From an uncultured virus (IMG/VR IMGVR_UViG_3300031521_000020) (lineage: Duplodnaviria > Heunggongvirae > Uroviricota > Caudoviricetes): 56,245 nucleotides of DNA. Shown piece by piece: positions 5,471-53,977 of the stretch. Position numbers and translations under genes: made by a program. The DNA lies in IMG/VR virus record IMGVR_UViG_3300031521_000020. One strand, given 5' to 3'. The notes under the pieces are model-generated. The model saw nothing but the letters and a program-made list of their open reading frames with translations. It had not been told where the DNA came from and made no database searches. Each line of letters begins with the position of its first letter. The first letter of the stretch is position 1.

Positions 5471-5554
5471 TTAAAGTACTATTTGATCTATTGTTTTCGT
5501 GATTGACCCCTTACTAACTACATATTTCTTTTTTCCATTGATAAAAAAATCCAT
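5471..5554 (-). CDS. 27-aa peptide
   Basis: MDFFINGKKK...; stop is the promoter TTAA. Confidence 0.45.
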   Translation of the reverse strand: MDFFINGKKKYVVSKGSITKTIDQIVL

Positions 5555-5571
5555 AGTATTTAAGTTTAAGA

Positions 5572-5772
5572 TTATTTTTCCAACTCTTTGTTTAATTCAT
5601 CAATCATATCCATACTAACACATAACAAATTATCATAGTTTCCTGATTTTGCTTCTGTAATGTAAGCATCTATTTCTTCCTGACTTTTACCCTCACTTCT
5701 CATAGCACCACTAACATATCCCATTATACTAAATGCGTTACCATCAATACCCATTAACTCATATTTTTCCAT
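5572..5772 (-). CDS. conserved hypothetical phage protein
   Basis: DGNAF...EAKSGNYDNLL motif recalled from uncharacterised phage proteins. Confidence 0.85.
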   Translation of the reverse strand: MEKYELMGIDGNAFSIMGYVSGAMRSEGKSQEEIDAYITEAKSGNYDNLLCVSMDMIDELNKELEK

Positions 5773-5847
5773 AACCTTATTTATTTAAATTGTTTATTAA
5801 TTTTTATAATACAAAGATAGTTTATTTGAACAATAGTTACAAATGAA

Positions 5848-6393
5848 TTATGTTAAAGGAAACATATTTGTGATTAAAATTTCAGAAAGATAAATACTGT
5901 TATTACCATTATGACCTTTTTTATTGGTGTCATTATCAAAATCATTTTTAATACCACTCAAAAGTTCATTTAATGTATTTTTTGGGTTTGATTCTGATAT
6001 TAATACGTTTAAACACGTAGTAAAACACTTATCTTTTATTTGATAATTAATTATATATTGTTTTTTCATAATTTTACAAAAGTTAATTACATCCGAAAAA
6101 TTTTTAGCATCTGTTGTTTTAACTCCAACATATTTTGCTTTAAAATAGTTTTCAATTATCACATAATTAACAACTGTAGATATTGGATTATAAAAACATA
6201 TTAACTTACCATAAAGATTAATGAAACTAAAGGTTAAAAAAATAGGCTTTCCACCAAATTCACCAATAATTTCACCAAAACCATCACGTATTTCTTCCCA
6301 TTCTGTTTTAGTATGATATTCTTTCCACAAAGAATGTTGTTCAAAACTTGTTGCTTCAACAAAGTAAACAACTGAATTCATTTTATCTCTCAT
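5848..6393 (-). CDS. hypothetical protein, possible two-gene fusion
   Basis: internal MKKQ start at 6069. Confidence 0.75.
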   Translation of the reverse strand: MRDKMNSVVYFVEATSFEQHSLWKEYHTKTEWEEIRDGFGEIIGEFGGKPIFLTFSFINLYGKLICFYNPISTVVNYVIIENYFKAKYVGVKTTDAKNFSDVINFCKIMKKQYIINYQIKDKCFTTCLNVLISESNPKNTLNELLSGIKNDFDNDTNKKGHNGNNSIYLSEILITNMFPLT

Positions 6394-6404
6394 AATAACA
6401 TATA

Positions 6405-6608
6405 TTATTTATTATCAGTTACAGAATTAAACCAATATATACCAACAAATAAAGCACCCATACCCGTACAAAACACCGTGTAAGCTATTCTACCATCTTC
6501 ACTCCAACGGCTCATATCCCAATTAAATGGAACTATACCGCTAATCAAATAGGTAATCAACCAAGTAACTACAAATATTAAAACTGAACTCCAAAATCTA
6601 TTTTTCAT
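6405..6608 (-). CDS. small 2-TM membrane protein
   Basis: two hydrophobic helices. Confidence 0.75.
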   Translation of the reverse strand: MKNRFWSSVLIFVVTWLITYLISGIVPFNWDMSRWSEDGRIAYTVFCTGMGALFVGIYWFNSVTDNK

Positions 6609-6611
6609 GAT

Positions 6612-6977
6612 TTATTTTGTTTTTAAGTACCAATCCAAAAATTCAACAACCGCAACCCAAGTGTTAATTAACATACTTTCACCACGTACACCACTAAATT
6701 TCATAGGTTTTTTACCAACTTCAATACTTGAACCATGATTCGTTATTTCAATAAATGGAGTATACCCATCAATTTTAAGTTTTATTATTTTTTCAACTAT
6801 TGACATCAAAGTATCATAAGATAAATGGTATGTAACCGACCTGAAAGGTAGTATATAGTCACCCTCGATACTCCTCCAAGCATAAACATCGAGACATTTT
6901 ACAAACCCAGCAAATTCTAATATCAACCCACTACCTACTTCAATTTCTTTTTCTTCTAATTTTCCGTCTGTTGTCAT
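6612..6977 (-). CDS. hypothetical phage protein, paralog of 13364..13708
   Basis: ILEFAG...YHLSYDTLMSIVEKI. Confidence 0.8.
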   Translation of the reverse strand: MTTDGKLEEKEIEVGSGLILEFAGFVKCLDVYAWRSIEGDYILPFRSVTYHLSYDTLMSIVEKIIKLKIDGYTPFIEITNHGSSIEVGKKPMKFSGVRGESMLINTWVAVVEFLDWYLKTK

Positions 6978-6984
6978 AATATAT

Positions 6985-7173
6985 TTATTTATTAAATGTT
7001 TTATTATATTCAGTAATTAAAGAATCTTGTTCATTGTATAATTCTTCAACACTCTTTTTAATCAACTGTTGAAAATCATAATGTGAATTATAAAGAGGGT
7101 TAATTTTACTTTTCATTGTTTGAATGTTAATAACAACGCTCATCATTTCAGGATTTGTTTTTAGTACGCTCAT
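6985..7173 (-). CDS. hypothetical protein
   Basis: ORF after promoter 7202. Confidence 0.7.
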   Translation of the reverse strand: MSVLKTNPEMMSVVINIQTMKSKINPLYNSHYDFQQLIKKSVEELYNEQDSLITEYNKTFNK

Positions 7174-7272
7174 TATGTTTATTGTTTTTAAAATTATGAT
7201 ACAAAAATAGCTAAATCCGATGTAATATACAAATGGATTTAGCTAAAATATGTTAATTAAAATTATATTTTA

Positions 7273-8100
7273 TTATTTTACTGGATATGTCATTGGTACT
7301 CCTGACCCACCACCGAATATAATGGTAACATTATCATGATCTTTAATTAACTCAACTTTTTCCTTTTCAATTTCAAGTTGCCTTAGGTGAAGATATTCAT
7401 TAACACTCATACCCATTTGATTTTGGTATGATTTATCAGCAATAGCTTTATTTATTTCGGCTTGTTTTCTTGAAAGCTCGGCTGTAGCCCTTGCATTTTG
7501 GGTTAATACACTTTGATTTTGTGCTGCTGTTAATTTTGTTTCAGTTAATACTTGTTCAGGTGGTGTAATTGCACCGATTGAAACTTGTAGAATTTTGACA
7601 GGAATATTTAATTTTTTAGCGTATGCCGATAAGTCTTTGAAAATATCACTTTCTAATTTAGATGAAATGTCTCGTTTACTTGCCAAGTCAAACATTTTAA
7701 AAGCACTTGCCTTATCTCTAACCATCGTTCTAAATGTTGCCTGTAGGCTGTGTTCATACCACTTAGCACCAAAATTTTGATATAAATACGGTGTTTTACC
7801 TTGTTGTATTTGGACTTTCAAATAAACTGAAAAGGAAACAGGTGTATTATCCGATGGAATCATATTCTTAAAATCTTCGGTAATGGTAGTTGGTGTAATC
7901 TGAAATTCATAATGATCTGTAGTTACAACACACCAAATAGAACCTGTTGGGATAGGAGTAGTATCAACCCCACCATCACCAAAAATCATAGGTTTATACA
8001 CTAACACACTCTCTTCACCTGCATTTGGTGAAACCCGATAGCAACTGTTCATTGTAAACATTAATACAGTTAGAAAAATAATCGAAAATACTTTTTTCAT
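7273..8100 (-). CDS. SPFH/Band 7 (prohibitin-like) lipoprotein
   Basis: lipobox TMNS-C, band-7-like core (ILQVSIGAITPPEQV), Ala/Gln-rich coiled-coil tail. Confidence 0.85.
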   Translation of the reverse strand: MKKVFSIIFLTVLMFTMNSCYRVSPNAGEESVLVYKPMIFGDGGVDTTPIPTGSIWCVVTTDHYEFQITPTTITEDFKNMIPSDNTPVSFSVYLKVQIQQGKTPYLYQNFGAKWYEHSLQATFRTMVRDKASAFKMFDLASKRDISSKLESDIFKDLSAYAKKLNIPVKILQVSIGAITPPEQVLTETKLTAAQNQSVLTQNARATAELSRKQAEINKAIADKSYQNQMGMSVNEYLHLRQLEIEKEKVELIKDHDNVTIIFGGGSGVPMTYPVK

Positions 8101-8208
8101 AAATTCTTGTTTTTTTTAATAATTATTTATTTGTTTTTAATTAATTTTGATATGCAAAGATACTATAATAGTTTTAACCGTGAAAATGGAATTTGTTAAA
8201 TAATATAT

Positions 8209-8478
8209 CTATTTTTTTAATATGAACGTTGTGTCTTTTACTGAAACAACATTATCAATTTTTTGATAGTTTATAACCATTTTATAAGTTGGTTTACCCT
8301 TTAACACATTTGATTCACCAGTTCTAGTACCAACGAAAAAACCTAATATTGATACGGTTATTACAAGTAATATTATAAAAAGAAAGATTAAGAATACGTT
8401 TTTCTCTTTAACGATTAGATATGTTAATATTCCAATCACCAACGAATATATTAGACATAAAATAGTAATTATTTCCAT
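8209..8478 (-). CDS. 2-TM protein, paralog of 19079..19360
   Basis: LKG..Y.M.I.Y..ID....DT motif. Confidence 0.8.
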   Translation of the reverse strand: MEIITILCLIYSLVIGILTYLIVKEKNVFLIFLFIILLVITVSILGFFVGTRTGESNVLKGKPTYKMVINYQKIDNVVSVKDTTFILKK

Positions 8479-8508
8479 ATTTTTAATTTATTTATTTTTA
8501 AAATGTTT

Positions 8509-8781
8509 TTACCAAGTCGGAAAATTTATATTTTCATAATCAATTTCATACAACCGCAACCAAGTAATGTTTTTATTATTTTTCTGATATGAAATATGAT
8601 TAGATAAACCAAAGAAAAACTCACCTCGTTCTACTATTGCGTAAAGCTTACCATCAATTAATCCGTGGGTAGCTGCTGTTTCATAATCAAATTCATTATC
8701 AAATGTAGGTACGTATTTACGAACCTTTTCAACTTGTTGTTTCTTTATTAAAATTGTAATATCAATATTTGTTGCTCCCAT
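8509..8781 (-). CDS. hypothetical protein
   Basis: co-oriented ORF. Confidence 0.75.
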   Translation of the reverse strand: MGATNIDITILIKKQQVEKVRKYVPTFDNEFDYETAATHGLIDGKLYAIVERGEFFFGLSNHISYQKNNKNITWLRLYEIDYENINFPTW

Positions 8782-8911
8782 GATTAAATAAATTTTTTAG
8801 TTGTTATTACTATTTGAATATTAATTCGTTTTCAGTTAAGTTTTCATATAAAAACCCAAATAATTAATAATAAATTGATTGGTAAAAATGATAATTTTTT
8901 TATTTATATAT

Positions 8912-9163
8912 TTAGTCTTCGAAATACATTTTTTCAAACGGACAAATTAAAAATTCTTTAACAAATCCATATTGTTTATCTTTTGGAAACGAATCTAAAA
9001 CTTGCCTTATTCTATCATTGTCAGTTAAAATGAATCCACCTGTGATAAACTGTTCTCCATTTATATCAATAACTTTCAAATGATTAGTTTTATTAACGCT
9101 ATTAGCCAATAGTTCAACAATTTCATAACCATCGGTTTCAGGTGTAATATGTAGTACTTTCAT
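8912..9163 (-). CDS. hypothetical protein
   Basis: co-oriented ORF. Confidence 0.75.
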   Translation of the reverse strand: MKVLHITPETDGYEIVELLANSVNKTNHLKVIDINGEQFITGGFILTDNDRIRQVLDSFPKDKQYGFVKEFLICPFEKMYFED

Positions 9164-9186
9164 ATATTTATTTTTAAATGTTTCAA

Positions 9187-9456
9187 TTAATAAACAACAA
9201 CTTCCTGAACATAAATGGTAGTAGTATCGGTATCATCCTCATCATCTTTATCAAAAGTCACAAGAATTTCAAACGTACCTTCTTGTCCAAATCCATAATC
9301 ATTCATATCCAAATCTATTTCAGTTGGAATTTCACAATCAAAATGTTCAGTCAAAGCTATTTTAGCTTTTTCATTTAATTCAGTGCTATTGTAAGCCGAT
9401 ATAACTGCAACTGCAACGTTATCTGATTCTGTTAGTAAAAAATATTTTATTTCCAT
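9187..9456 (-). CDS. acidic hypothetical protein
   Basis: ORF after promoter 9484. Confidence 0.8.
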   Translation of the reverse strand: MEIKYFLLTESDNVAVAVISAYNSTELNEKAKIALTEHFDCEIPTEIDLDMNDYGFGQEGTFEILVTFDKDDEDDTDTTTIYVQEVVVY

Positions 9457-9524
9457 ATTATTTGTTTAAATTAATTTCTAATACAAAGATAGTAGTTTTA
9501 TTTTAATAGTAGAAATGAAATTTG

Positions 9525-9773
9525 TTAAATTACAACTTGTTTGATTGTATCGGTAATTGATTCTTTAACAATAACAATTAATCCTCGACTATCATCCGTA
9601 CTATCTATTAATTCAGCATCAGCATTTTCAAATCCTAATTCAAGAACTTGTTTACAAGCTTCAAACATAGCAGGAACTATAACATCTTTAATCATTCTAT
9701 CAGCAATTGACCAACCTTTTTCAACTGCAATATCATCTAATATTTCCTGTAAATTAATTTTCTTTGTTTCCAT
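9525..9773 (-). CDS. hypothetical protein
   Basis: stop in promoter TTAA. Confidence 0.8.
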   Translation of the reverse strand: METKKINLQEILDDIAVEKGWSIADRMIKDVIVPAMFEACKQVLELGFENADAELIDSTDDSRGLIVIVKESITDTIKQVVI

Positions 9774-9797
9774 AATAATTATTTTATTTTTTTGTCA

Positions 9798-10067
9798 TCA
9801 ATAAAGTTCTCTTTTTATAAATGCTTCCATTTCATCAATATATTCTAAATCTTCTCCCCACATTACACTCTCATATTCAAGCTCAAATTTATCTGTTAAG
9901 TCTTCTGAAAGATTATATAAACCTCCAGTACCACGTGTTTTTACTACATCCCAAGCTTTACCAACATCATCTGAATGACTAAGTTGTTGTTCTATTGCCA
10001 TCACTATTTTATAATGTGCTTCCAACCAATCCGTAAATCCATTTGGAAAATCTTTTTCTGTTTTCAT
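9798..10067 (-). CDS. hypothetical protein
   Basis: ORF after promoter 10104. Confidence 0.8.
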   Translation of the reverse strand: MKTEKDFPNGFTDWLEAHYKIVMAIEQQLSHSDDVGKAWDVVKTRGTGGLYNLSEDLTDKFELEYESVMWGEDLEYIDEMEAFIKRELY

Positions 10068-10148
10068 ATATTACAAAATGTTATTTAGTTAAATTTTGAT
10101 ACACAAAGATAATAGTTTTTATTGGTTTAATAAAATGTAAATTGTTAA

Positions 10149-10499
10149 TTATATTTCAATTAATTTAATTGCTTCTAAAATAACATATTCACGGGCTTGT
10201 TCGTAAGTGTCAAAATTATATTCTGAATTACAAGTTTTACCCATTTTACCAAACGTAACCCAATAACCTTTACCATTAATGTGGCTAAAAATAGGACAAG
10301 CAAACACATTATGTTTAATTCTAAGCCAATCAAAAACCTGATCCCAAAGCGGAGCTAAAATTTTTGTAAGTTTCAATTCATCCATTATTTTTTCATCTTG
10401 AATGAACCCTTCTTCATCATAAACTTTAAAACAAGTTTCATTAAAACCAACTTCTTTTAATTCTAATGCTATCTCGTAATTAACAAAATATTTTTCCAT
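10149..10499 (-). CDS. hypothetical phage protein, paralog of 18606..18995
   Basis: FV.YEIAL.LKE.G...APLW.QV..WLR.KHN. Confidence 0.85.
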   Translation of the reverse strand: MEKYFVNYEIALELKEVGFNETCFKVYDEEGFIQDEKIMDELKLTKILAPLWDQVFDWLRIKHNVFACPIFSHINGKGYWVTFGKMGKTCNSEYNFDTYEQAREYVILEAIKLIEI

Positions 10500-10505
10500 A
10501 ATGAT

Positions 10506-10727
10506 TTAATTAAATTTTGGTTTTTCACATTCGTATTCAATATCGCCTTTATATTCTTCAGGGATAAGGTAACAATCGTATTCATCGGCATCAATCACTT
10601 CATTAGCTTCATCCTCTGTTAGGTGTTGTATTGAATCAATTCGATGCACAATAGTTTTATAAACACCGTCAAAATTATATTCTAAAAACGTCATGCTACC
10701 AAATAATACTGTTAATTTATTTTCCAT
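10506..10727 (-). CDS. hypothetical protein
   Basis: ORF after promoter 10765. Confidence 0.75.
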   Translation of the reverse strand: MENKLTVLFGSMTFLEYNFDGVYKTIVHRIDSIQHLTEDEANEVIDADEYDCYLIPEEYKGDIEYECEKPKFN

Positions 10728-10797
10728 ATGTTTACTTTTTATTTGCTTTAATTAATTTCTGATACAAAGATAAACCTTTACATTGGTTTATGAAAAT

Positions 10798-11091
10798 TTA
10801 ATCTGTTAAAAATTCATACACATTTTTAAGTTTCATTGGGTCACCAACAGGTTCTTGTTTCTCACGAGAGTATATGATTTTAAAATGCTTATACCTACTC
10901 GATCTTAATATCTCATCTATTTGCACAGTAGATACATCTACATTTACTATTTTAGCATATTGTAAAGCAGCATCGTAAGCATCAAGACAATTGATTGAAC
11001 CACCACCAAAATAACCTAAAGACCAAATATTTCGCTTCATAGTGGTATCGTAATATTGGTAAAAATCACCTAATTTCGTTACATCTTCCAT
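10798..11091 (-). CDS. hypothetical protein
   Basis: co-oriented ORF. Confidence 0.8.
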   Translation of the reverse strand: MEDVTKLGDFYQYYDTTMKRNIWSLGYFGGGSINCLDAYDAALQYAKIVNVDVSTVQIDEILRSSRYKHFKIIYSREKQEPVGDPMKLKNVYEFLTD

Positions 11092-11104
11092 ATTATTATA
11101 TTAT

Positions 11105-11398
11105 TTATTTTGTTTCTTTTAAAACTAATTTCCAAACTTCTCCCCTTAGGAATTTTATATTTAATGATGGTAATGCTTTTTTTGTAGCAAGTCTTACTGC
11201 TAAATTTTCGTTATCAATATCCTTTTCGTGTTTAATCACTGTTCCTGTTCCACGTAGAAACCCATTTACATACATTAAACATTGCGTTGTTTTAGGGTAA
11301 GATTTACCAACATAATACATTCTCAATGGATGCCCTGTTAAATACTCTAACCTTATTTTTATACTTTTATCAGACGTTTCATAATTTATAGTTTTCAT
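11105..11398 (-). CDS. hypothetical protein
   Basis: co-oriented ORF. Confidence 0.8.
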   Translation of the reverse strand: MKTINYETSDKSIKIRLEYLTGHPLRMYYVGKSYPKTTQCLMYVNGFLRGTGTVIKHEKDIDNENLAVRLATKKALPSLNIKFLRGEVWKLVLKETK

Positions 11399-11403
11399 AT
11401 TGA

Positions 11404-11571
11404 TTAATCTTTTAATATTATATTTTCAATTGTAGTAATAGCATCTTTAAGTTCATCAATTCTACCAACCATTTCAAAATAATAATCATCTTTATCATAA
11501 TTGTACATCCCTGATTCCAACACTTCAAGTCTATTTTCTAATATTTTTAATATTTCATCAAATTTATTCAT
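11404..11571 (-). CDS. small hypothetical protein (55 aa)
   Basis: MNKFDEIL... after promoter 11598. Confidence 0.7.
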   Translation of the reverse strand: MNKFDEILKILENRLEVLESGMYNYDKDDYYFEMVGRIDELKDAITTIENIILKD

Positions 11572-11713
11572 AATATTTCTCTTCTTTAATTATAATACAA
11601 AATTATTAAATTAATTTTAATACTGAAAATGATTTTTGTTAAATAATAGGGTATCTGTGATTTAAACTAAATTCACTATCGATGACTGTAAGTAAAAAAC
11701 CACTTCCACCCTA

Positions 11714-12028
11714 TTATAAATATTTCACCAATTCAAGTATAAATTTTTGAAATTCAACCAAAGCTAAATCACAAGTCGATTGAGTGTGAAAATTATGTTT
11801 TGAATTCATATAACCTGTCAATTCATTACAGTTATCAAATCTACAAAAAACACTAAATAATCCGCTTCCAATATTATCATCAACATATATCTCCACGTTG
11901 TTTATTTCCCCATCAACCTTATAGCTGCCATTTCTAACTGCTTCATTGATTACCTTAGCGTTATAAACTAATATCATTTTGGTAGCCGCAGTTCTAAATT
12001 TGTGATCTAATACTTTTGTAACTTTCAT
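11714..12028 (-). CDS. hypothetical protein
   Basis: start moved to MKVTK, downstream of promoter 12067. Confidence 0.8.
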   Translation of the reverse strand: MKVTKVLDHKFRTAATKMILVYNAKVINEAVRNGSYKVDGEINNVEIYVDDNIGSGLFSVFCRFDNCNELTGYMNSKHNFHTQSTCDLALVEFQKFILELVKYL

Positions 12029-12116
12029 ATTATATAGTTTATTTTGTTTTTTATTATATTGTAACACAAAGATAAATTATTTATTTCAATTATAAAAATG
12101 AAATCTGTTAATTTAA

Positions 12117-12863
12117 TTAATTGCTGGTTTTTAATTTTTTAAGCATATCTTCAAGCTTACCTATTAGCTCTTGTTTATATAATGAGTGTTCAATATTTAA
12201 TGAAGACCACTCAACTGTACTTAATATAGGTTCGAAACTATTAAAATTCAATTTATCAGCCAATTCAATATTTTGAATACCTGTCGTTAAAAATAACGGT
12301 TTCAATAAACTACTTAAAATTGAAATAATTGAATCAACATCTTTTTCGGATTTAACTGTTATATATGATTTGTTAGATGTAAATAAGTTTATAGTTATTT
12401 CATCGCTTTCATCGTATTCGGACATATCAAGTCCATTAATACGCATAGTCATTTTATTGGTTGTACATCCATAAATATCTTTTTGCTCAAAGATATATGT
12501 TTCATTCGAGCCACATACAAAACCCAAATCTTTCAGAAATTCATTCACAACAAGATAAGGAAAAACAAACGGTCTATTATTTGGGTAATAGAAATCAGAG
12601 TGATAAGGTAATGATTCAACATATTTTTTAATAACATCTTTTAAAACAGATATTGAAGTATAAAAATATTTCACTTCATTAATAGGATTTTTAATATATT
12701 CACTCGGAATAATTTTAAATCCATCACCAACTCTCTCAACTCTACAATAATATTGAATATTAAGATTTTTACCACTACCTACAATTGGATTAAAAAGTAA
12801 ATAATGATCTTTAACATAGTCTTTATTGACTGTATAGTATTCTTTTAAATCTTTTAAGTTCAT
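12117..12863 (-). CDS. hypothetical protein
   Basis: 248-aa ORF. Confidence 0.85.
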   Translation of the reverse strand: MNLKDLKEYYTVNKDYVKDHYLLFNPIVGSGKNLNIQYYCRVERVGDGFKIIPSEYIKNPINEVKYFYTSISVLKDVIKKYVESLPYHSDFYYPNNRPFVFPYLVVNEFLKDLGFVCGSNETYIFEQKDIYGCTTNKMTMRINGLDMSEYDESDEITINLFTSNKSYITVKSEKDVDSIISILSSLLKPLFLTTGIQNIELADKLNFNSFEPILSTVEWSSLNIEHSLYKQELIGKLEDMLKKLKTSN

Positions 12864-12947
12864 GATATTTTTATTTTTTGTTTAAATATAAAAAGTTTTC
12901 ATATAGCACTTTAGAAATATTTTCATCTGTTATTTTAGACAATTTTT

Positions 12948-13304
12948 TTATTGAAATTTACTTTCGTTTTCTTTATAATTTATCATATATCCCTCATATG
13001 GAATGCACAATCTATCATATAACCCTAATTTATCAAGCGTATTTATTTGTGCCTGTGATGGCTTTATTTCGATAATAGGCGTACTATAAACGGTACTTCC
13101 AACCATACACCAACCTAATTTTTCAACATACTGTTTTGCGTGGGGTACATCGGGGAATAAAGTATTTACTATTTCATAGTGTATTGAAACACATTCACGA
13201 TTCAAACTACCTTTATATTTATGTATTTTTCCACTCCTATCAATCCAATATTGAGAATTACATCTTTCAATATTATGATTTTTATTCATCTGCTTATCTG
13301 TCAT
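12948..13304 (-). CDS. hypothetical protein
   Basis: co-oriented ORF. Confidence 0.8.
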   Translation of the reverse strand: MTDKQMNKNHNIERCNSQYWIDRSGKIHKYKGSLNRECVSIHYEIVNTLFPDVPHAKQYVEKLGWCMVGSTVYSTPIIEIKPSQAQINTLDKLGLYDRLCIPYEGYMINYKENESKFQ

Positions 13305-13363
13305 AATAATATTAAGTTTGGTTTTGTTTTTATTTACTTATTAAAATCAAAATTGTTAAAAAA

Positions 13364-14071: not shown

Positions 14072-14088
14072 AACTTATATTAGCTTAT

Positions 14089-46066: not shown

Positions 46067-46080
46067 TACTCATTCGAGTA
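46067..46080. repeat. TACTC-N4-GAGTA palindrome 9
   Basis: TACTCATTCGAGTA, just upstream of promoter 46011-46055. Confidence 0.85.
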
Positions 46081-46269
46081 TTGTTAATTATAGGATAATA
46101 AATTGATTAAAAAAATCGTTTACTTCTTTGGATTCTTTACCATATTTTTCACTAAGTTTATCCAATTGTTTATCAAGTTCTTTATATTTTCTACATCTCC
46201 TATCAGCGGTTTCTGATAGGTATTTGTATACTGTTAGATGATTATTAGTTGTTTGTACCATATTATTAA

Positions 46270-46599
46270 TTATTCTTCTTCATCTTTTGGAAATTCATAA
46301 AATTCACTATTGATTATAGCATCAACACATTCATCCATCAATGAACCTAGATTTTGATCCAACGAGAAGTTTTCATCAATCTCAGAATAACAAAAAGCTA
46401 CCAATGGACTTTTTTCTTCTGCTTCACTAAGTGCAACGTGTTCGGCTCTAAAAACAGGCGTTCCATCAACTTTTGAATCAATATCAATGTTAAAAATGAT
46501 ATAATCCTGTTCGTTGGTTCGTTGGTCTACAACTTCAATCTCAAAAAAATTCATTTTATTCACCGCTTCCCACTGTTGGGCAATTGTTAAATCTGTCAT
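46270..46599 (-). CDS. acidic hypothetical protein
   Basis: co-oriented ORF. Confidence 0.8.
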   Translation of the reverse strand: MTDLTIAQQWEAVNKMNFFEIEVVDQRTNEQDYIIFNIDIDSKVDGTPVFRAEHVALSEAEEKSPLVAFCYSEIDENFSLDQNLGSLMDECVDAIINSEFYEFPKDEEE

Positions 46600-46624
46600 A
46601 ACTATTTATTATTTATTTGTGAAT

Positions 46625-46849
46625 TTAAAATTGTTGAATAAACATCAGAGACTTGTCTGTAGAAATAGTTAAAAAACCATCAGAGACTTGTTTATAAAAG
46701 TGAGAGACCTTAAAAGGTTTTTCAATATTCTCTTTTAATAATTCGGAATAAATGTACATAGATTCTGAATCAAAGGAAACAACGCTAAAAGTGTTTATTT
46801 CATCCTCAACATAAAATCGTAACCCTATTTTTAAAAAGTCTTTTTTCAT
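46625..46849 (-). CDS. hypothetical protein
   Basis: ORF after promoter 46875. Confidence 0.75.
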   Translation of the reverse strand: MKKDFLKIGLRFYVEDEINTFSVVSFDSESMYIYSELLKENIEKPFKVSHFYKQVSDGFLTISTDKSLMFIQQF

Positions 46850-46933
46850 AACATTGTTGCTTTAAATTGATATGTAAAAGTAATATATTTTAATCGTTGG
46901 TACAAATGGAATATGTTAAAGTAATTATTTACA

Positions 46934-46947
46934 TACTCATTCGAGTA
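46934..46947. repeat. TACTC-N4-GAGTA palindrome 10
   Basis: TACTCATTCGAGTA, just upstream of promoter 46875-46919. Confidence 0.85.
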
Positions 46948-46949
46948 TC

Positions 46950-47225
46950 TTATTCATATTTTAAGCAATTTTTTGCGGTTGGAACGGTTGAATAAACTTC
47001 ATTACCGTTTTTATAGACTTTAAAGCCTACTATTCTATTAACTGCATTCATTTGAATGATTCTTTGTCTTGCCTGATAACATATTGATGATAAATTCAAA
47101 CGCCCATCGTAATACATTACAGAATCACTACCACAACCCTCAATAGGATATTTCATATCCCAATTCATTTTTCCATCAACCCATTTACCTGTTGACATTT
47201 CATAAAAACGTACATAGTTTTTCAT
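46950..47225 (-). CDS. hypothetical protein
   Basis: GSDSV...DGR motif. Confidence 0.8.
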   Translation of the reverse strand: MKNYVRFYEMSTGKWVDGKMNWDMKYPIEGCGSDSVMYYDGRLNLSSICYQARQRIIQMNAVNRIVGFKVYKNGNEVYSTVPTAKNCLKYE

Positions 47226-47416
47226 TTATCAATATTGTTTTTGTTACTGATTTGATAATTAATATCATTTTCCTTTAAGAATTTTTCACATTCATCTGAA
47301 TGTATAAAAACGTTAATATATGCCCCATTGCGGTATGCAGGTTCAAATTTAACACTTCTATCTTCACGGTATGTGAATTTTAACCATTCGTTTATTATAA
47401 TTGTTTTCATAACCAA
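47222..47416 (-). CDS. hypothetical protein
   Basis: ATGA-coupled. Confidence 0.7.
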   Translation of the reverse strand: MVMKTIIINEWLKFTYREDRSVKFEPAYRNGAYINVFIHSDECEKFLKENDINYQISNKNNIDK

Positions 47417-47426
47417 TTTTTTTTAA

Positions 47427-47627
47427 TTAAGGTATTAAAGTAAATTTATATTCACAATCATCAATAACACAAAAAACCGTTTGATAAGAATAAACATCTT
47501 TTTCAGGATTATATAAATTAGCAAATACACAATTGTCGTGAACGTTAAAAAATTTAATTTCTAAACCGTTTCTATTGGCATGCTTCAATAAAATATTTAT
47601 TTGCTGCAATACTGTTAACGTTTTCAT
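47427..47627 (-). CDS. hypothetical protein
   Basis: ORF after promoter 47657. Confidence 0.75.
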   Translation of the reverse strand: MKTLTVLQQINILLKHANRNGLEIKFFNVHDNCVFANLYNPEKDVYSYQTVFCVIDDCEYKFTLIP

Positions 47628-47811
47628 ATTTTGTTTGTTTTAATTAAATTGATATGTAAAAGTAATTCATTTCAACCATATACCGAAATGGAATTTGTTA
47701 AATAAATTACTTTGTTTTTTAACAAATTCCATTTTCACGAATGGATTCAAAAGATTATCTTTGTTGTATAATTAAAAGGAAATAAATCAATTCATTAAAA
47801 ACTTATAAGTT

Positions 47812-48171
47812 ATGAAAGCAATTTTAGTTAAAGACAACGATTTTAAAACCATTGGTTTTGAAGTTACAACGGACGAAGGTAGCCGTATTTTCAATTACGG
47901 AATTTCCCCACGGTCGATGAATTACACAAAGGAAATAGATGTTAAAAAATACCTACTCAAAATTTTTGAACTTGTAAGACTTGAAACGTTAATTTATGAA
48001 CAGGAAAGATTTGTTAGTAAATTTTTCGATGTAGCATCAAAAAACAAATTAGTTAACAGTGTTAAAAATGCTGACCCAACTATTAAATTAAGTGCTAAAT
48101 TTCAGGAAAGTGACGAAATGATTAAACAAAATAAAAATGAAATAAAAAGAATAATTGATAGCTTTATTTAA
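47812..48171 (+). CDS. hypothetical protein
   Basis: ORF after + promoter 47719. Confidence 0.8.
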   Translation: MKAILVKDNDFKTIGFEVTTDEGSRIFNYGISPRSMNYTKEIDVKKYLLKIFELVRLETLIYEQERFVSKFFDVASKNKLVNSVKNADPTIKLSAKFQESDEMIKQNKNEIKRIIDSFI

Positions 48172-48196
48172 CTAAACTTGACATAAAATGACTTTG

Positions 48197-48233
48197 CTTA
48201 ACCTATATTGATAGAAATATGGGTTAAGTTTTT
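48197..48233 (+). terminator. Terminator after 47812..48171, possibly bidirectional
   Basis: CTTAACCTATAT-N8-ATATGGGTTAAG-TTTTT. Confidence 0.6.
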
Positions 48234-48244
48234 ATTAAGTTTTT

Positions 48245-48312
48245 TTAACAAAAAAAGTTTAGATGTCAAGGAGACCATACTTCAGGATTTGTGCATCCTG
48301 TCAACCTCTCTC
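48245..48312 (-). ncRNA. Candidate structured sRNA, copy C
   Basis: Follows promoter 48329-48373; AGAGAGGTTGA-CAGGAT..ATCCTG-AAGTATGGTCTCC-N20-GTTAA. Confidence 0.65.
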
Positions 48313-48339
48313 ATCCATTATTGTAATACAAAGATACAG

Positions 48340-48368
48340 AAAAGGGCTTACTTCTGCAAACCCTTTTT
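48340..48368 (-). terminator. Intrinsic terminator embedded in promoter
   Basis: GGGTTTGC-AGAA-GTAAGCCC-TTTT. Confidence 0.65.
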
Positions 48369-48386
48369 GTTAAATTAATTTATTTT

Positions 48387-48740
48387 TTATTTTAACAAAT
48401 CCCATTTTATTCCATCATTCAATTCAATTCTTTTATTCATTTTTTCAATTAAATCCATTGCAATAAAATGAAATTGATGACTATCATTTGTTAATTCAAA
48501 TTCTGAAAAAACATTCAAATTAAAACGGTTAACTTTTGTTTTCATAACCAACAATCCGTTTTTATCAAATTTTGACTCTTGAATAAAGACCTGATAATGC
48601 TCAAATTTACTTTGCGCTTGTAGGTTACAAAGAATGTTTTCTAAAGCGTTTAAAGCACTGCTAAACGTGTTTGTAACACTATTGAACTTTCCACCTGTCA
48701 TGTTATAAACTTCAATTGTGAAAATAGATTTCTTTTCCAT
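48387..48740 (-). CDS. hypothetical protein
   Basis: start moved to MEKKS, after promoter 48767. Confidence 0.8.
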   Translation of the reverse strand: MEKKSIFTIEVYNMTGGKFNSVTNTFSSALNALENILCNLQAQSKFEHYQVFIQESKFDKNGLLVMKTKVNRFNLNVFSEFELTNDSHQFHFIAMDLIEKMNKRIELNDGIKWDLLK

Positions 48741-48901
48741 GATGCTATATTGTTTTGATTTCGATGTAAAAGTAATATAATATAATGGATTAGTAAAATG
48801 GAATTTGTTAAAATAATTAATTTGTTTTTTAACAAAAAGCATTTGTTTCGTGTTGGTTAAAAGCTTACTTTTGTATTATAAATTTATTAAACGAAAACAA
48901 A

Positions 48902-49195
48902 ATGAAATATCCAAAAGCTCAATTTGACTTACTTGTAAACGGTTTAAAAGTAGTAGTTAACCATTACGGAATAACTTCTAAGGAAAAATGTTTAACCGAT
49001 TCTATGTTACATGAATTACATTTTAAAGTCTTTGTAAACTACAACTATTTAGTTAATAATTCAAATGTTAATTTAGATTCTGATGGTGTACGTATTTTAC
49101 CATTAACCGAAAGTTTTGAGTTATATCCAAACAATTGTGTTGATGATAACATTGAAACGGCTATGAAAGCAGCAATAAAATTAATTTTTATTTAA
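48902..49195 (+). CDS. hypothetical protein
   Basis: ORF after + promoter 48829. Confidence 0.8.
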   Translation: MKYPKAQFDLLVNGLKVVVNHYGITSKEKCLTDSMLHELHFKVFVNYNYLVNNSNVNLDSDGVRILPLTESFELYPNNCVDDNIETAMKAAIKLIFI

Positions 49196-49207
49196 CAAAT
49201 AAAAAAT

Positions 49208-49429
49208 ATGTTAACACAAAAGCTTATTAAAGTTCAACTAAACGATTTTGTTTTTGTAACAACTACAAAATACTATTGGTTTTTACAAAATGGAATTTTA
49301 AGATGTGGCGAAATTGGTCGTTTGATTATAATTGAAAAAGGTATTGAACCATATACCAATGGTAAATGTAATTTAACAAATAAACTAATTGTTGAAAAAT
49401 ATATTAGAGAAAATATTCGTTTTTATTAA
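49208..49429 (+). CDS. hypothetical protein
   Basis: stop in promoter TTAA. Confidence 0.75.
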   Translation: MLTQKLIKVQLNDFVFVTTTKYYWFLQNGILRCGEIGRLIIIEKGIEPYTNGKCNLTNKLIVEKYIRENIRFY

Positions 49430-49523
49430 CAAATTCCATTTTGATATATCAATGTTAAACACTATTTTTGTATATCAATTAATTAAAACGAAATAATTAA
49501 ACGCTTTTAAAAAATATACTATT

Positions 49524-50054
49524 ATGATTAAGACAAGTGAAAAAATTGCAGTTGAGAATTACCCTTGGGGATTTCGATTAAAAACCACTTTGTATGATTC
49601 TATGGAATTTAGCCCTAAAAAGGGTTACAGGCACGTTACACAAACTATTGACCCGAAAACAGGTAAATTGTGCGCACCAAAAAAATCAACTTATTACGCT
49701 TTGTTGGTTCGTTATTACAACGATGATAACCATATCAAAACAATGGCATTTGATTTTAACGGTATAGAATCAATAAACAAAGGTTGCAAATTTGTTAATG
49801 AAAACATTGAATTATTTGATAATAATGAAATTCAATATTTTTATGGTTATATCAGAATGATGGCAATAGTTGATTTAAAAGCTAACGTAATGTATTGCGG
49901 TTCAAAATTTGAAGATTTAAAACCATTATACGACCCATTTATTGAACTATGTGAAAAAGGGTTATCCAATGGCTGGAATTACTTTAGTGAATTACAATTG
50001 GATGTTGAAGCTATTAAATCGTTGGAAGATGTTAATTACAATCCATTCAGATAA
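49524..50054 (+). CDS. conserved hypothetical phage protein
   Basis: VENYPWGFRLKT...QT.DPKTG...PKKSTY motif recalled from phage proteins. Confidence 0.85.
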   Translation: MIKTSEKIAVENYPWGFRLKTTLYDSMEFSPKKGYRHVTQTIDPKTGKLCAPKKSTYYALLVRYYNDDNHIKTMAFDFNGIESINKGCKFVNENIELFDNNEIQYFYGYIRMMAIVDLKANVMYCGSKFEDLKPLYDPFIELCEKGLSNGWNYFSELQLDVEAIKSLEDVNYNPFR

Positions 50055-50074
50055 AAAATCTGATTTAATTTAAC

Positions 50075-50107
50075 AAAAAGCATTTGCAGTTGTAGATGCT
50101 TTTGTTT
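50075..50107 (+). terminator. Intrinsic terminator embedded in promoter
   Basis: AAAAGCATTTGC-AGTT-GTAGATGCTTTT-GTTT. Confidence 0.6.
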
Positions 50108-50153
50108 ACTTTTACATATTGAAATTAAATAAAACAATTTAAAAAATAAAGTT

Positions 50154-50369
50154 ATGAATACAATTAGTGTTTTTGTTGGGGTGGATGAATTTATTTGTAA
50201 ACAATTTGATGGCGGAATTGATATTTGGGAAAAAAACATTTTTTTAGGCGAATTAGAAGGCGTTAACATTCCTGATGCAGAAGATAATGATGAATTAGAA
50301 AATTTTAATAAAGAGGTTGAAAATTGGTTAGAAGTTAATTATTATAATTCTAAATCAATTGATTATTAA
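50154..50369 (+). CDS. acidic hypothetical protein
   Basis: ORF after promoter 50070. Confidence 0.75.
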   Translation: MNTISVFVGVDEFICKQFDGGIDIWEKNIFLGELEGVNIPDAEDNDELENFNKEVENWLEVNYYNSKSIDY

Positions 50370-50390
50370 TCAAATAAACAATATACGGCT

Positions 50391-50567
50391 ATGAACTTAG
50401 AACTTAAAAAAGCGATTTTCAATTATATGATTGACAACCACAAAGTTTTTCAACTTGTTAACCATACGAAAGAACATTTCAGTCAATACATTTATTTACC
50501 AAACGGTGACTATTGTATCGGTGGAATTGAGGTTGCAGATTTTATAAATGCAGTTGATAAACTTTAA
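50391..50567 (+). CDS. small hypothetical protein (58 aa)
   Basis: stop in promoter TTAA. Confidence 0.7.
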   Translation: MNLELKKAIFNYMIDNHKVFQLVNHTKEHFSQYIYLPNGDYCIGGIEVADFINAVDKL

Positions 50568-50648
50568 CAAATTCCATTTTCGTTAATGGGTATTTTTCAT
50601 TACTTTTACGTATTGAAATTAAAGAAAACAAAATTAAACAAACGCCTT

Positions 50649-50756
50649 ATGAAAAAAGTTATAGCATTCGTAAAAAAACGTTCAAAAGCTGAAAAATTGG
50701 TATTTGCCTGTTTAGCTTATTATTCAATCGGTTTATTCATAGCAAGCAACCTATAA
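50649..50756 (+). CDS. 35-aa membrane peptide
   Basis: after promoter 50564; hydrophobic C-terminus. Confidence 0.55.
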   Translation: MKKVIAFVKKRSKAEKLVFACLAYYSIGLFIASNL

Positions 50757-50765
50757 TAGAAACAA

Positions 50766-50888
50766 ATGAAAACACTAAAAAAAGTTAATATAAATTTAGT
50801 TATCGCATTGGTGGTTTTAGTTTTATTCATTATAGGTATTTCACAAGCGGATTTTTCAAACCATTTTAGTAACATTATTTGTAAATAA
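50766..50888 (+). CDS. 40-aa membrane peptide
   Basis: single hydrophobic helix. Confidence 0.55.
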   Translation: MKTLKKVNINLVIALVVLVLFIIGISQADFSNHFSNIICK

Positions 50889-50895
50889 AATCATT

Positions 50896-51090
50896 ATGAG
50901 AGTAGAGGCAAAAAAATACATTGGAACGTATAAGGTTTACAGAGTGTTTAAAGTAAGTCGTCGACGTGAAATTTTGAGAAGAGGTTGTACAAGAGAAGAA
51001 GCAATATCAATTGTTAATAGATATGAAAACAGTAATCGAAGTATGGTATGTTTTGATAGGCAATTTACAGCGGACAAATATTACAAATAA
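50896..51090 (+). CDS. basic hypothetical protein
   Basis: co-oriented ORF. Confidence 0.75.
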   Translation: MRVEAKKYIGTYKVYRVFKVSRRREILRRGCTREEAISIVNRYENSNRSMVCFDRQFTADKYYK

Positions 51091-51102
51091 AACCCTTAAC
51101 TT

Positions 51103-51246
51103 ATGGAAACAAATTTAATTACTTGGGGCGATGGTCATAAACGGTATGTTAAAGACTGTGAAAAAGCTGAAATTGCAGCTTACGAAAAAGCATTTTATTT
51201 TGACGATGTTAAATTAAATGACATACCAATAAAACGGAATTTTTAA
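51103..51246 (+). CDS. small hypothetical protein (47 aa)
   Basis: stop in promoter TTAA. Confidence 0.65.
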   Translation: METNLITWGDGHKRYVKDCEKAEIAAYEKAFYFDDVKLNDIPIKRNF

Positions 51247-51320
51247 CAAATAAGAGTTGCGGGAATGAAATATTTCCCGTATCTTTGTAAGGTAATCAAA
51301 ATTAATTAATCAAAAATAAA

Positions 51321-51491
51321 ATGAAAAAATATAACAGTCAAACAGGTTGCTACAAAATTGATATTTTTTTAGATGGTTGTTATATATGTAGTACTGAACA
51401 ATCCAAAACATGTAAGGCTGCAAAGGAACGTTTTAAAGAAGTTAACGTACCAACGACAATGAAATTAACAGCACACTTTTTTAAATATTAA
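51321..51491 (+). CDS. small hypothetical protein (56 aa)
   Basis: single-gene cassette; stop in promoter TTAA. Confidence 0.7.
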   Translation: MKKYNSQTGCYKIDIFLDGCYICSTEQSKTCKAAKERFKEVNVPTTMKLTAHFFKY

Positions 51492-51558
51492 CATATTTCA
51501 TTTTAAGGAATGAAGTGAAAATATTATCTTTGTATCATAATTAAAACAAACAGTTTTT

Positions 51559-51843
51559 ATGAAAGCAATTATTAGAGTGACAGGTCAAATTAACGGGAAT
51601 CACAAACTTGTTAATAATTTGGGTGGTTCTATTTTTAACAGAAATGGAATGTTTTATTCTTATATTTTGTATTATAATACTATTTCACAAGCCAAAAAAG
51701 CAATTCAATATGCTCACAAGCAATTAAAAGAAGATGGTAGTGAAAAGTATAAAGATAATAGTGGAATGTCTTATGATGCAAGCAGAGCACAAATTGAAAT
51801 AATTTCAGTTGAACAATTTAACAAAGAAACTCTTAAATATTAA
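51559..51843 (+). CDS. hypothetical protein
   Basis: ORF after promoter 51488. Confidence 0.8.
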   Translation: MKAIIRVTGQINGNHKLVNNLGGSIFNRNGMFYSYILYYNTISQAKKAIQYAHKQLKEDGSEKYKDNSGMSYDASRAQIEIISVEQFNKETLKY

Positions 51844-51848
51844 TCATT

Positions 51849-52109
51849 ATGAAAAATATTAACCCTACCAATTCAAGTGAAAAACAAGTTGTTGAACATT
51901 TATTATTTTTAATCGATGAAATTATTCTAATGTATGCATTAAATAAAAATGTATTCTATTTAAGACCTCAAGGAATGAATACAATTATTGAAAAAGCGGG
52001 TATCAATTTAATGGAAGTTAAGGTTAATGAACATCTTTATACATTTGGTGGAATTACTGAAAAGTTTTACGATGATGTGGTCGAATATTTTTCCGATTTA
52101 GAATCATAA
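51849..52109 (+). CDS. hypothetical protein
   Basis: co-oriented ORF. Confidence 0.75.
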   Translation: MKNINPTNSSEKQVVEHLLFLIDEIILMYALNKNVFYLRPQGMNTIIEKAGINLMEVKVNEHLYTFGGITEKFYDDVVEYFSDLES

Positions 52110-52187
52110 TTTAACAAATTCCATTTTCACGAATGGTTTAAATATAGTACATTTGTGAACATTAAATAATTAAATAAATCAAACACA

Positions 52188-52574
52188 ATGAAAAAAGTTT
52201 ATATAGATGAAGAATTGGTTGAAGCTTACAAACATTTAATAAATGTTAAAGAAGCAATAGACATCAATACATTATATATGTGGTTTGATGATAATGAAAT
52301 TGATTACAGTAAATTGAATGAGTTGGATATGTATATCTATTACATAAAAGCGAATAGTGAACAAACGTTAATACCACAAAAATATGTTGGTAGTACTTAC
52401 AACGGTGAAAAAATTGAATGTATTAAAACCGATTGTGAAGGAAATTTAACAGTTGTTACGAATAAAGAGCAAAAAATATTTGAGTGCTATTGTAGTGTTC
52501 CAAACGAAATGAATGCAGATTATTTACTTTGCGAAATTCAACACGAAAGAGGTATAAACGTAAGCAAATATTAA
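52188..52574 (+). CDS. hypothetical protein
   Basis: single-gene cassette; stop in promoter TTAA. Confidence 0.8.
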   Translation: MKKVYIDEELVEAYKHLINVKEAIDINTLYMWFDDNEIDYSKLNELDMYIYYIKANSEQTLIPQKYVGSTYNGEKIECIKTDCEGNLTVVTNKEQKIFECYCSVPNEMNADYLLCEIQHERGINVSKY

Positions 52575-52645
52575 CAAATTCCATTTTCACGAATAGACAA
52601 TTTAAACTATCTTTGTGATAAGAAATTAATAAATAATCAATCGTT

Positions 52646-52969
52646 ATGGAAACAGATAAAAATATTTTAATTGAAGTTCAGTTCAGGAAATTTAAATACG
52701 GGAATAAAGAAGTAATTGCCGTTTTTCCGTACCAAATTGAGGGGGAAGATTATGTAGGTTCTTATATGCGTGTCGAGCAACATTCTGTTTGTAGGTGGGA
52801 TATAAACGACTTTACATGTAATGCAAAACCATCAGAATATGCAGACCTATTGAAAGAATTAAAATCAATCGGTTACGATGTTAAAATCGTTACACGTCGT
52901 AATCATTCACGTTATTTGAAAGAATTATATAAAGAAAAAATAAAACGTTATAACCAACAATTTAATTAA
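52646..52969 (+). CDS. conserved hypothetical phage protein
   Basis: FRKF...VIAVFP...SYM.V.QH...A.P.EYA.LL.EL..IGY motif recalled from phage proteins. Confidence 0.85.
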   Translation: METDKNILIEVQFRKFKYGNKEVIAVFPYQIEGEDYVGSYMRVEQHSVCRWDINDFTCNAKPSEYADLLKELKSIGYDVKIVTRRNHSRYLKELYKEKIKRYNQQFN

Positions 52970-52975
52970 AATAAT

Positions 52976-53146
52976 ATGAGTTGGAAATATATTTTTAACA
53001 GTTCGCTACGCCCATCGATGTGGGGGCATATTGATAAGGCAATTGAAGTGGCAAAAATTGCTGGTTATGAATTTTTAACTTGGAATGGATTAATATATAC
53101 GATTGAGGGAAAAGTAACAAGGTTTGATATATCAGATTTAAAGTAA
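52976..53146 (+). CDS. small hypothetical protein (56 aa), related to 56124..
   Basis: EVAKIAGYEFLTWNG. Confidence 0.7.
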   Translation: MSWKYIFNSSLRPSMWGHIDKAIEVAKIAGYEFLTWNGLIYTIEGKVTRFDISDLK

Positions 53147-53248
53147 AATAATTTAAATAAAATACCAATGGCAAAAACATTAACATATAAGGATAAACAA
53201 CCTTACAAAAAAATAAGCAAACAAGAAAATAAGTGGAATTAATTTTAG

Positions 53249-53283
53249 AATCCTTTAACACAATAAATGTTAAGGGATTTTTT
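53249..53283 (+). terminator. Terminator facing sRNA D
   Basis: AATCCTTTAACA-N7-TGTTAAGGGATT-TTTT. Confidence 0.6.
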
Positions 53284-53291
53284 AACTTCAG

Positions 53292-53357
53292 TTAACATTA
53301 TTTTATTCTATATAACGGAGAAAATACTTTAGTTTTGTTACGACTACCAACCTCTCT
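53292..53357 (-). ncRNA. Candidate structured sRNA, copy D
   Basis: Follows promoter 53375-53419; AGAGAGGTTGG-TAGT..ACTA-AAGTATTTTCTCC-N20-GTTAA. Confidence 0.65.
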
Positions 53358-53521
53358 ACTCTTATTTTATGATACAAAGATAGTGCTTTTCATTGGTATT
53401 TCAAACCCGAATTTGTTAAAAGAATATGTTTTATTTAGATCATTTTTTAACAAATTACATTTGCTTTGTATTGGTAATTTCACTACATTTGTATATCAAT
53501 TAATTAATAAATCAAAAGATT

Positions 53522-53977
53522 ATGAATGATAGCGAAGTTTGGATTGAAAGTGATTTGTATATCGATGCCCAAAATAAATTGGAAAAATTGATGGGTGTAT
53601 CTGAATACGAAAAATTTTGTAAGGACTACAACAAAAAAATGATTGAACAACGTTTTTTAGAACAACTACCATTTTTAACAATTGATAGTATTTTAGAAAA
53701 CAAATACGGACATTTCGAAACATGTGATGGGGATTGTTCAAGTTTTTCATATTTCGGTGTATGGGTACGACAAAATAAATTTCGTTACGATTTAACAATT
53801 GATACCAAACGTTACAACGGTCAATTTTTTAATCCATATTACAGCCAAAAGTATGAAAATTTAACAAAGGAGAATGCACAGTATTTGATTAATTGTGAAG
53901 CTGAAAGAATGAACGAAATTGGTACTTTTTACGTTCCTTATTCTGTAATTGTTCAGGAGTTAATAAAATTAATTTAA
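53522..53977 (+). CDS. hypothetical protein
   Basis: single-gene cassette; stop in promoter TTAA. Confidence 0.85.
   Translation: MNDSEVWIESDLYIDAQNKLEKLMGVSEYEKFCKDYNKKMIEQRFLEQLPFLTIDSILENKYGHFETCDGDCSSFSYFGVWVRQNKFRYDLTIDTKRYNGQFFNPYYSQKYENLTKENAQYLINCEAERMNEIGTFYVPYSVIVQELIKLI

Follow-up and report, generated by a model that had tools for sequence, protein, structure and literature searches.

The window analysed here, a stretch of 56,245 nt from an uncultured virus of the class Caudoviricetes (IMG/VR record IMGVR_UViG_3300031521_000020), carries 72 copies of a 45 nt repeated element among approximately 158 small genes identified by a codon-model caller. We consider it probable that these elements form a promoter array resembling the promoter-early stem-loops (PeSLs) of T4-like phages, located in the small-gene region of a phage of approximately 360 kb and reshuffled by homologous and microhomology recombination. 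An earlier interpretation of the window, made from its letters and open reading frames (ORFs) and referred to here as the sequence-only reading, had proposed a cassette-like array with attC-like core words at which gene gain and loss take place. The stop codon overlap that it described is real; its integron-like interpretation has largely been refuted.

A repeated element with Bacteroidota promoter boxes

The copies were identified in a profile scan (score >16), which returned no matches in 20 Markov-shuffled windows under a first model, and at most one weak match in 10 shuffles under a second model. In the direction of the genes, the consensus reads TTAACAAATT.cATTTt, approximately 20 variable bases, and TAtcTTTG. 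The distance between TTAACA and the TA of the -7 box was 37 nt in 55 pairs, and every other distance was represented by nine pairs or fewer. TA and TTT of the -7 box were invariant (70/70) and the G was present in 87% of copies, whilst the -33 region reads ATTT(T/C/G). In 65 of the 72 copies, an ATG follows 66-105 nt past the first T of the element. There is one element per one to five small genes, and 59 of 149 gene junctions carry a copy.

The published consensus for the primary sigma factor of Bacteroidota consists of a -7 box, TAnnTTTG, and a -33 box, TTTG (PMC7366714). The element shares both boxes with such promoters, as well as the 20 nt spacer and the short A-rich leader to the ATG (PMC7366714, PMC9723704). 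The -7 box has been placed at -12 to -5 (PMC9723704), and TTAACA is therefore positioned at -49 to -44. The match to the consensus suggests that the element is a Bacteroidota -33/-7 promoter with the addition of TTAACA at approximately -49, a word that is not mentioned in the accessible portions of either paper.

The position of TTAACA is not peculiar to phages. Cellular genomes, one per species, were searched for TTAACA followed by a free gap of 3-11 nt and TTTG. Among the matches listed, the gap was 7-8 nt in 51 of 120, compared with an expected share of 2/9 (p=6e-7), and 68 of the 80 titles of cellular matches listed were Bacteroidota. Of the 51 listed matches with a gap of 7-8 nt, just four had a long frame terminating at the TAA. 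TTAACA thus appears to belong to the promoter itself, and is a candidate upstream element of strong promoters; the phage promoter PBfP1E6 is described as having UP elements, which are left unspecified in the accessible part of the preprint (10.1101/2025.03.18.644028). In the cellular genomes (L205-L324), a second (T)TAAC often lies one turn upstream of TTAACA.

The same layout was found at 41 IMG/VR loci without DNA similarity to the window, often as a single copy and sometimes in tRNA clusters. No viral locus matched the exact consensus, and one matched the pattern that includes the GTTAA pair described below. In unrelated phages, stops seldom overlap the element. Genome G006 contains 19 copies in 40 kb, with stop overlap in one of the eight copies that have a called upstream gene, although the gene caller, having been trained on the window, could overlook G006 genes. 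In this unrelated 287 kb phage, TTAACA promoters form a separate cluster ahead of small genes at 143.8-152.6 kb (L341), and one protein is common to it and the flank of the phage studied here. In a distant relative of 362 kb (G005), dense -33/-7 promoters occupy a small-gene region and A-rich upstream tracts replace TTAACA. Separately, a contig from a cellular genome (L286, from G001) carries an element with a spacer close to window element +54679 and to L056; G001 has only two pattern matches, and L286 is possibly a phage fragment in the bin. Bacteroides phage B40-8 has a strong promoter, and a connection with it was also considered and found to be unsupported, with only one TTAA at 37 nt from a -7 box.

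Stop codons at TTAACA

The sequence-only reading reported that at least 25 unrelated ORFs terminate in the TTAA of the element, and this was borne out. All 22 stop coordinates that it listed are the TAA of TTAACA, and three more overlapping stops (21176, 21615 and 23732) give 25 overlaps among the 64 elements that have a co-oriented gene ending within 400 nt. The 25 proteins had no mutual BLAST matches at E 1e-3. A 27 aa ORF (Table 1) that falls below the limit of the gene caller adds a 26th case. Seven of its first eight residues are those of a 92 aa gene found at the corresponding location in relative B (loci L077, L109 and L059). Genes common to B and the window are 65-80% identical in DNA and differ in order. 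After eight codons the ORF diverges from the gene of B and runs on to TTAA, and it is probably a gene that was deleted internally and then read on to the element.

The coincidence between stops and TTAA exceeds chance by a wide margin when stops are drawn at -60 to +10 of the element (25 versus 9.5 expected; 57 elements, p<1e-5), and by a small one when they are drawn at -21 to +10 (25 versus 18.2 expected; 51 elements, p=0.028). The main fact is, therefore, that genes end right at the promoter, and 51 of the 64 upstream genes do so within -21 to +10. TAA is the stop codon of 141 of the 158 window genes. A frame of random phase entering the last 15 nt would stop at TTAA in 39% of cases (deep read-through excluded), which equals 25/64. 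The value of 15 nt was picked after the fact, and the predicted share drops from 53% with entry at 9 nt to 15% with entry at 60 nt; the compaction model therefore demonstrates sufficiency, not proof. Genome compaction combined with the frequency of TAA, which the sequence-only reading had named as the explanation that would undo its own, accounts for most of the coincidence.

Related DNA gave similar figures, with overlap at 12 of 37 elements in B and 13 of 38 in the short relatives (28 short contigs), or 25/75 together. In B, 26 of 52 copies have a second TAA at -10, and this is the position of 7 of 37 stops. Only one window gene (30003-30347) reads deep into an element, ending with a TGA at +22 of element -30028.

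The GTTAA word and exchange between elements

An inverted GTTAA was found in 30 of the 72 copies (26 at +28 and four at +27), separated by the 23 nt spacer that the sequence-only reading had noted. In an integron-like array, a tyrosine recombinase would cleave TTAAC...GTTAA as a minimal attC-like site, and cassette capture would have left its footprint in the stop overlap at 25 of 64 elements. The pairing of the two words in 30 copies fits such a scheme, yet we regard it as extremely improbable. An attC site is defined by R and L boxes, extrahelical bases, a central spacer, a terminal structure and a single-strand hairpin (PMC5027507). The strict core words, RYYYAAC and GTTRRRY, which stand at the two ends of an attC site, occur together in only eight of the 72 copies. 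The 35 nt span has no attC-like hairpin: it folds with a mean of -1.9 kcal/mol, the same as shuffled interiors, and an average of 2.3 inner pairs are in register (27 GTTAA copies).

The word is also nearly confined to this phage. GTTAA was present in none of 11 copies in the phage's own flanks, four of 52 in B, one of 62 in the short relatives and none at 30 IMG/VR loci, so that relatives together have it in 5 of 114 copies, although stop overlap there is as frequent as reported above. Overlap was independent of GTTAA in the window (13/29 with, 12/35 without; p=0.45). A crossover at GTTAA would tie spacer positions +17 to +27 to the upstream gene, and the opposite was found. This part of the spacer tracks the downstream gene (0.50 versus 0.41, p=0.003, 29 pairs) and is not tied to the upstream gene (p=0.30, 14 pairs), whilst positions +6 to +16 track both; the evidence is moderate, since the pairs are interdependent and the null does not control for region. 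Outside the GTTAA columns, spacer identity was 0.59 in GTTAA copies and 0.37 in the others, and element likeness falls with distance (rho -0.25, p=0.0005, 56 copies). The sharing of the rest of the spacer, and the greater likeness of neighbours, are consistent with the spread of one variant copy by conversion or duplication.

The enzyme required by an integron-like array was sought in the same phage. Neither a profile search of G004, an IMG/VR record representing 147 kb of this phage, nor tblastn against G004, the window and its flanks detected a tyrosine recombinase; no serine resolvase was found in the 147 kb of G004, and no integron integrase in the approximately 221 kb examined of the ~360 kb genome. 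The distant relative G005 does encode a 286 aa tyrosine recombinase, and approximately 140 kb of the present phage is unseen. However, the G005 enzyme is XerC/D-like, its score of 158 lies below the integron-integrase cut-off of 265, and the G005 genome is devoid of elements. None of the testable features bears out the attC reading. The array is not an integron array, and it does not supply a new integron-like system.

Alternatively, TTAAC and the inverted GTTAA could be operator half-sites for a regulator of phage or host origin that marks a subclass of early promoters, the stop overlap being incidental. This would be compatible with a promoter array as an addition to it, and is in our view very unlikely. 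The fixed inverted spacing in 30 copies, the positioning of TTAACA in cellular promoters and the tandem TAAC that 13 of the 52 B copies have at -10 are what an operator might produce; against this, the GTTAA copies share their other spacer bases too, which points to the spread of one copy, and no regulator was identified among the 43 of 158 window proteins scanned.

The proposal that promoter and gene units bounded by repeats are shuffled between relatives held, whereas the attC-like crossover points did not: exchange positions vary and do not coincide with GTTAA. Among 26 junctions in relatives with both genes orthologous to the window, six were conserved (one with an element) and 20 were new. 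Of these new joints, 12 carry an element and eight do not, one of the eight only skipping a doubtful 35 aa ORF. In a script count, conservation was seen at one of 33 junctions where at least one of the two genomes had an element, compared with 5 of 21 without.

Elements recombine with each other. The element of B that precedes the orthologue of the gene at 52646 is chimeric, its 5' part resembling +51488 and its 3' part +52111; the switch occurs at a GAATG common to both (+19 to +23), and the two intervening genes are missing from B. A 77 nt promoter plus leader is present in two nearly identical copies that end at an ATG, with unrelated genes before and behind, and element -22967 is likewise nearly identical to another copy between unrelated genes (Table 1). 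The duplicates end at varied positions. These observations sit poorly with a pure promoter array of passive elements, whose genes would be moved by illegitimate recombination at whichever boundary is AT-rich, as do the 30-copy subfamily with its common spacer sequence and the lower conservation of junctions that carry an element. We consider a passive array unlikely, whilst recognizing that it would account for the eight new joints without an element, for an enrichment that is not significant, for the break inside the gene at 5471-5554 and for the duplicate that ends at ATG. Shuffling is real, and the elements take part in it, but not alone.

Peat contigs from four runs were compared with positions 19000-38900 at 82% likeness; they represent the same strain at low depth and yielded no usable strain breakpoints, most joints having sides of <30 nt. 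One joint, from 32646 to 36917 (depth 2.4, one contig), falls inside the 77 nt duplicate and could be a real deletion or an artefact; it was not counted.

Several observations weigh against the promoter-array interpretation. The enrichment of elements at new joints was not significant (p=0.16 and 0.27; p=0.052 against the 59/149 of the window, and p=0.17 for B alone), and element-mediated shuffling is not established as the dominant route; the relatives, at only 70-78% identity, have many events superimposed. A residual excess of overlaps persists in the narrow test, in-frame stops were found in 35 of 64 cases where one third was expected (p=3.6e-4), and internal genes ending TAA-C have a preceding T in 11 of 13 cases (p=0.01). 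No description of the TTAACA word was found in the open full-text papers searched, and phage B40-8 lacks the 37 nt spacing. Given the internal TAA-C stops, TTAAC might be a preferred joint in addition to a wall. Several orthologues that are internal in the window lie at offset 0 in a relative, their stops having hardly shifted, and these cases, along with the internal TTAAC excess, may be scars of promoter gain and loss via short shared words.

The internal TTAAC stops, the unmoved orthologue stops and the residual excess at offset 0 would also be compatible with a dedicated exchange system that joins units at TTAAC, where stop and promoter edge coincide, by means of a recombinase or annealase encoded in the remaining ~140 kb. 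Any gene ending in TTAA could then dock onto or off a promoter, integron-like but without attC hairpins. We think such a system quite unlikely.

We favour a promoter array, in which the repeat would act as a strong early promoter for the primary sigma factor of a Bacteroidota host (-7 TAnnTTTG, -33 TTT(G/T/C), upstream TTAACA), and host polymerase would most likely transcribe each unit at once on infection. Selection would keep TTAACA and the boxes intact whilst deletions strip spare DNA, and deletions and stop-codon drift would push each upstream gene to end before TTAACA or on its TAA; stops would gather there because TTAACA is the 5' edge of the promoter and no stop follows its TAA ahead of the promoter core. 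Deletion joints may also be guided to TTAACA by short words in common (TAA, TTAA). The many similar copies of 45-80 nt would offer general homology to the phage's own recombination system, and a UvsX-type system could pair copies and delete, duplicate or convert promoter-bounded units, possibly with circles as intermediates. Other joints would form at A-rich leaders or inside genes. The UvsX-like and SbcC-like genes found in the same phage count in favour of this recombination component.

Phage context and relation to known systems

The window has a G+C content of 26.6% and is 100% identical to part of a 263 kb metagenome contig (loci L080-L089 and others); the source runs of the DNA are peat metagenomes. 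G004 was assigned to the same phage by 100% identity over 6,735 nt of flank, and its 147 kb at a CheckV completeness of 41% lead to an estimated whole genome of ~360 kb. In contrast to the 72 elements of the window and 11 in 25 kb of flanks, the 147 kb core region in G004 contains none. A survey of G004 proteins (80 of 84 proteins of at least 150 aa) revealed the UvsX-like recombinase, an SbcC-like nuclease subunit, helicases, a tail tube protein, a sigma factor, endonuclease VII and many homing endonucleases. Gp23 was not found in the 147 kb of G004, and was found in G005. Among 43 larger window proteins, one passed the Pfam cut-off (SPFH/Band 7) and eight had PHROG matches, mostly of unknown function. 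No tRNA or Rfam family was found in the window, no cultured phage matched the element or was close in protein searches, and the loci reached via the SPFH gene were without it. Recoded stop codons in the window were ruled out, as coding cover barely changes with TGA or TAG read-through.

Table 1. Coordinates of the repeated element, overlapping stops and other features of the window
Feature	Position	Strand	Remark
Array of 72 putative promoter elements among ~158 small genes	1285..56098	both	consensus TTAACAAATT.cATTTt-N20-TAtcTTTG
Leftward arm, elements and genes nearly all minus	1285..47701	-	profile scan
Rightward arm	47719..56098	+	profile scan
Divergent element pairs	47701/47719, 48811/48829, 53419/53447, 55217/55234	-/+	profile scan
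GTTAA subfamily, 30 copies	16105..49470	both	GTTAA at +27/+28
Stops that are the TAA of TTAACA	9525, 13781, 17683, 20595, 21176, 21615, 23732, 25784, 26228, 32019, 32734, 33577, 35031, 35835, 37003, 38433, 39303, 42784, 43857	-	
Stops that are the TAA of TTAACA	49429, 50567, 51246, 51491, 52574, 53977	+	
27 aa ORF ending in TTAA of element -5474	5471..5554	-	26th overlap, below limit of gene caller
Elements +51488 and +52111, compared with one chimeric element in B	51488..52155	+	sequence comparison
Promoter plus leader, 77 nt, element +14 to ATGG	32647..32723	-	nearly identical to 36917-36993
Second copy of 77 nt promoter plus leader	36917..36993	-	spacer of element -37006 is 1 nt shorter
Element -22967	22914..22975	-	nearly identical from -8 to +53 (62 nt) to element -40484; unrelated flanking genes
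Element with terminator-like hairpin inside	24316..24361	-	also -7246, -48373, +50070, +51243
SPFH/Band 7 protein gene	7273..8100	-	sole Pfam pass among 43 window proteins scanned

Genes occupy the minus strand as far as ~47.7 kb, after which most are on the plus strand. The divergent element pairs stand back to back, 17-28 nt apart, an arrangement that is kept in relatives, and the sign of the GC skew changes near 48 kb, at a possible origin or genome-entry region. Elements -42787, -48373, -53419 and -55217 (and the weaker +42529) precede no ORF and are followed, ~45-120 nt past their first T, by a common 70 nt sequence, AGAGAGGTTGG ... AGTAT..TCTCC ... GTTAA, with homologues in B and the right flank. 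Its consensus fold is weak (-3 kcal/mol; one of eight pairs with a double change) and it had no Rfam match. All copies are located near the strand switch; the sequence might represent a small RNA, an origin-related sequence or a promoter of a different class that points the opposite way.

Other features of the phage are a transposase-family gene in G004 and a PHROG 'terminase' segment common to several G004 frames, including that of a DnaB-like helicase (L364:3368-5887 and L362:7801-8937), which may mark inteins. The left flank, on the same contig as the window, encodes a protein with a GmrSD N-terminal domain and a GHKL-ATPase protein (L094:8662-9510 and L094:3429-5012). The paralogous small genes 20092-20310 and 20870-21094 are 78% alike over 147 nt (20192-20338 and 20991-21137), a local duplication.

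PeSLs are known from the T4-like phage pairs phi1/RB49, PST/T4 and nt-1/KVP40, where repeated early promoters bound orphan genes and recombination between copies leads to deletions and circles (PMC2839356, PMC4122927). As far as the accessible parts of these papers extend, the likeness is considerable. Both systems consist of dozens of repeated host-type promoters in a variable orphan-gene region that are scarce or absent in the core, as judged here by sequence. The stop codons upstream of PeSLs are typically found in the AT-rich stretch that precedes the -35 box (PMC2839356, Fig. 2 legend), corresponding to the 51 of 64 stops near the promoter here; indels and chimeric elements between copies are seen in both (one clear case here), and in both some copies have a hairpin between the two boxes. 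PeSLs, however, are characterized by a stem-loop terminator, whereas a strong RNA hairpin (< -13 kcal/mol) was predicted in only five of the 72 elements, plus two weak ones (46 nt folded per element), and the element was not filed as a PeSL for this reason. The promoter boxes also differ (Bacteroidota -33/-7 versus sigma70 -35/-10), as does the density (72 in 56 kb versus ~50 per genome), and here a fixed TTAACA word supplies the stop. Circles and promoter activity have been shown for PeSLs, while the present array is known from its sequence.

The resemblance to integrons, on the accessible text of PMC5027507, is limited to TTAAC near the upstream stop, the inverted GTTAA in 30 of 72 copies and an array of small unrelated genes. 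The element has no L boxes, extrahelical bases or hairpin. Integron cassettes are mostly promoterless and each has its own site, whereas units here carry a promoter and 90 of 149 junctions lack an element; the integron crossover is fixed in the R box, in contrast to the +19 to +23 switch of the chimera and the varied ends of the duplicates.

If the promoter assignment is correct, the shuffling of promoter-bounded genes that is known from T4-like phages infecting Proteobacteria would extend to a jumbo phage of Bacteroidota, and at an unusually high density. The array and its relatives constitute a natural library of more than 180 promoter variants, and TTAACA at approximately -49, also positioned in cellular promoters of Bacteroidota, represents a candidate upstream promoter element in this phylum.

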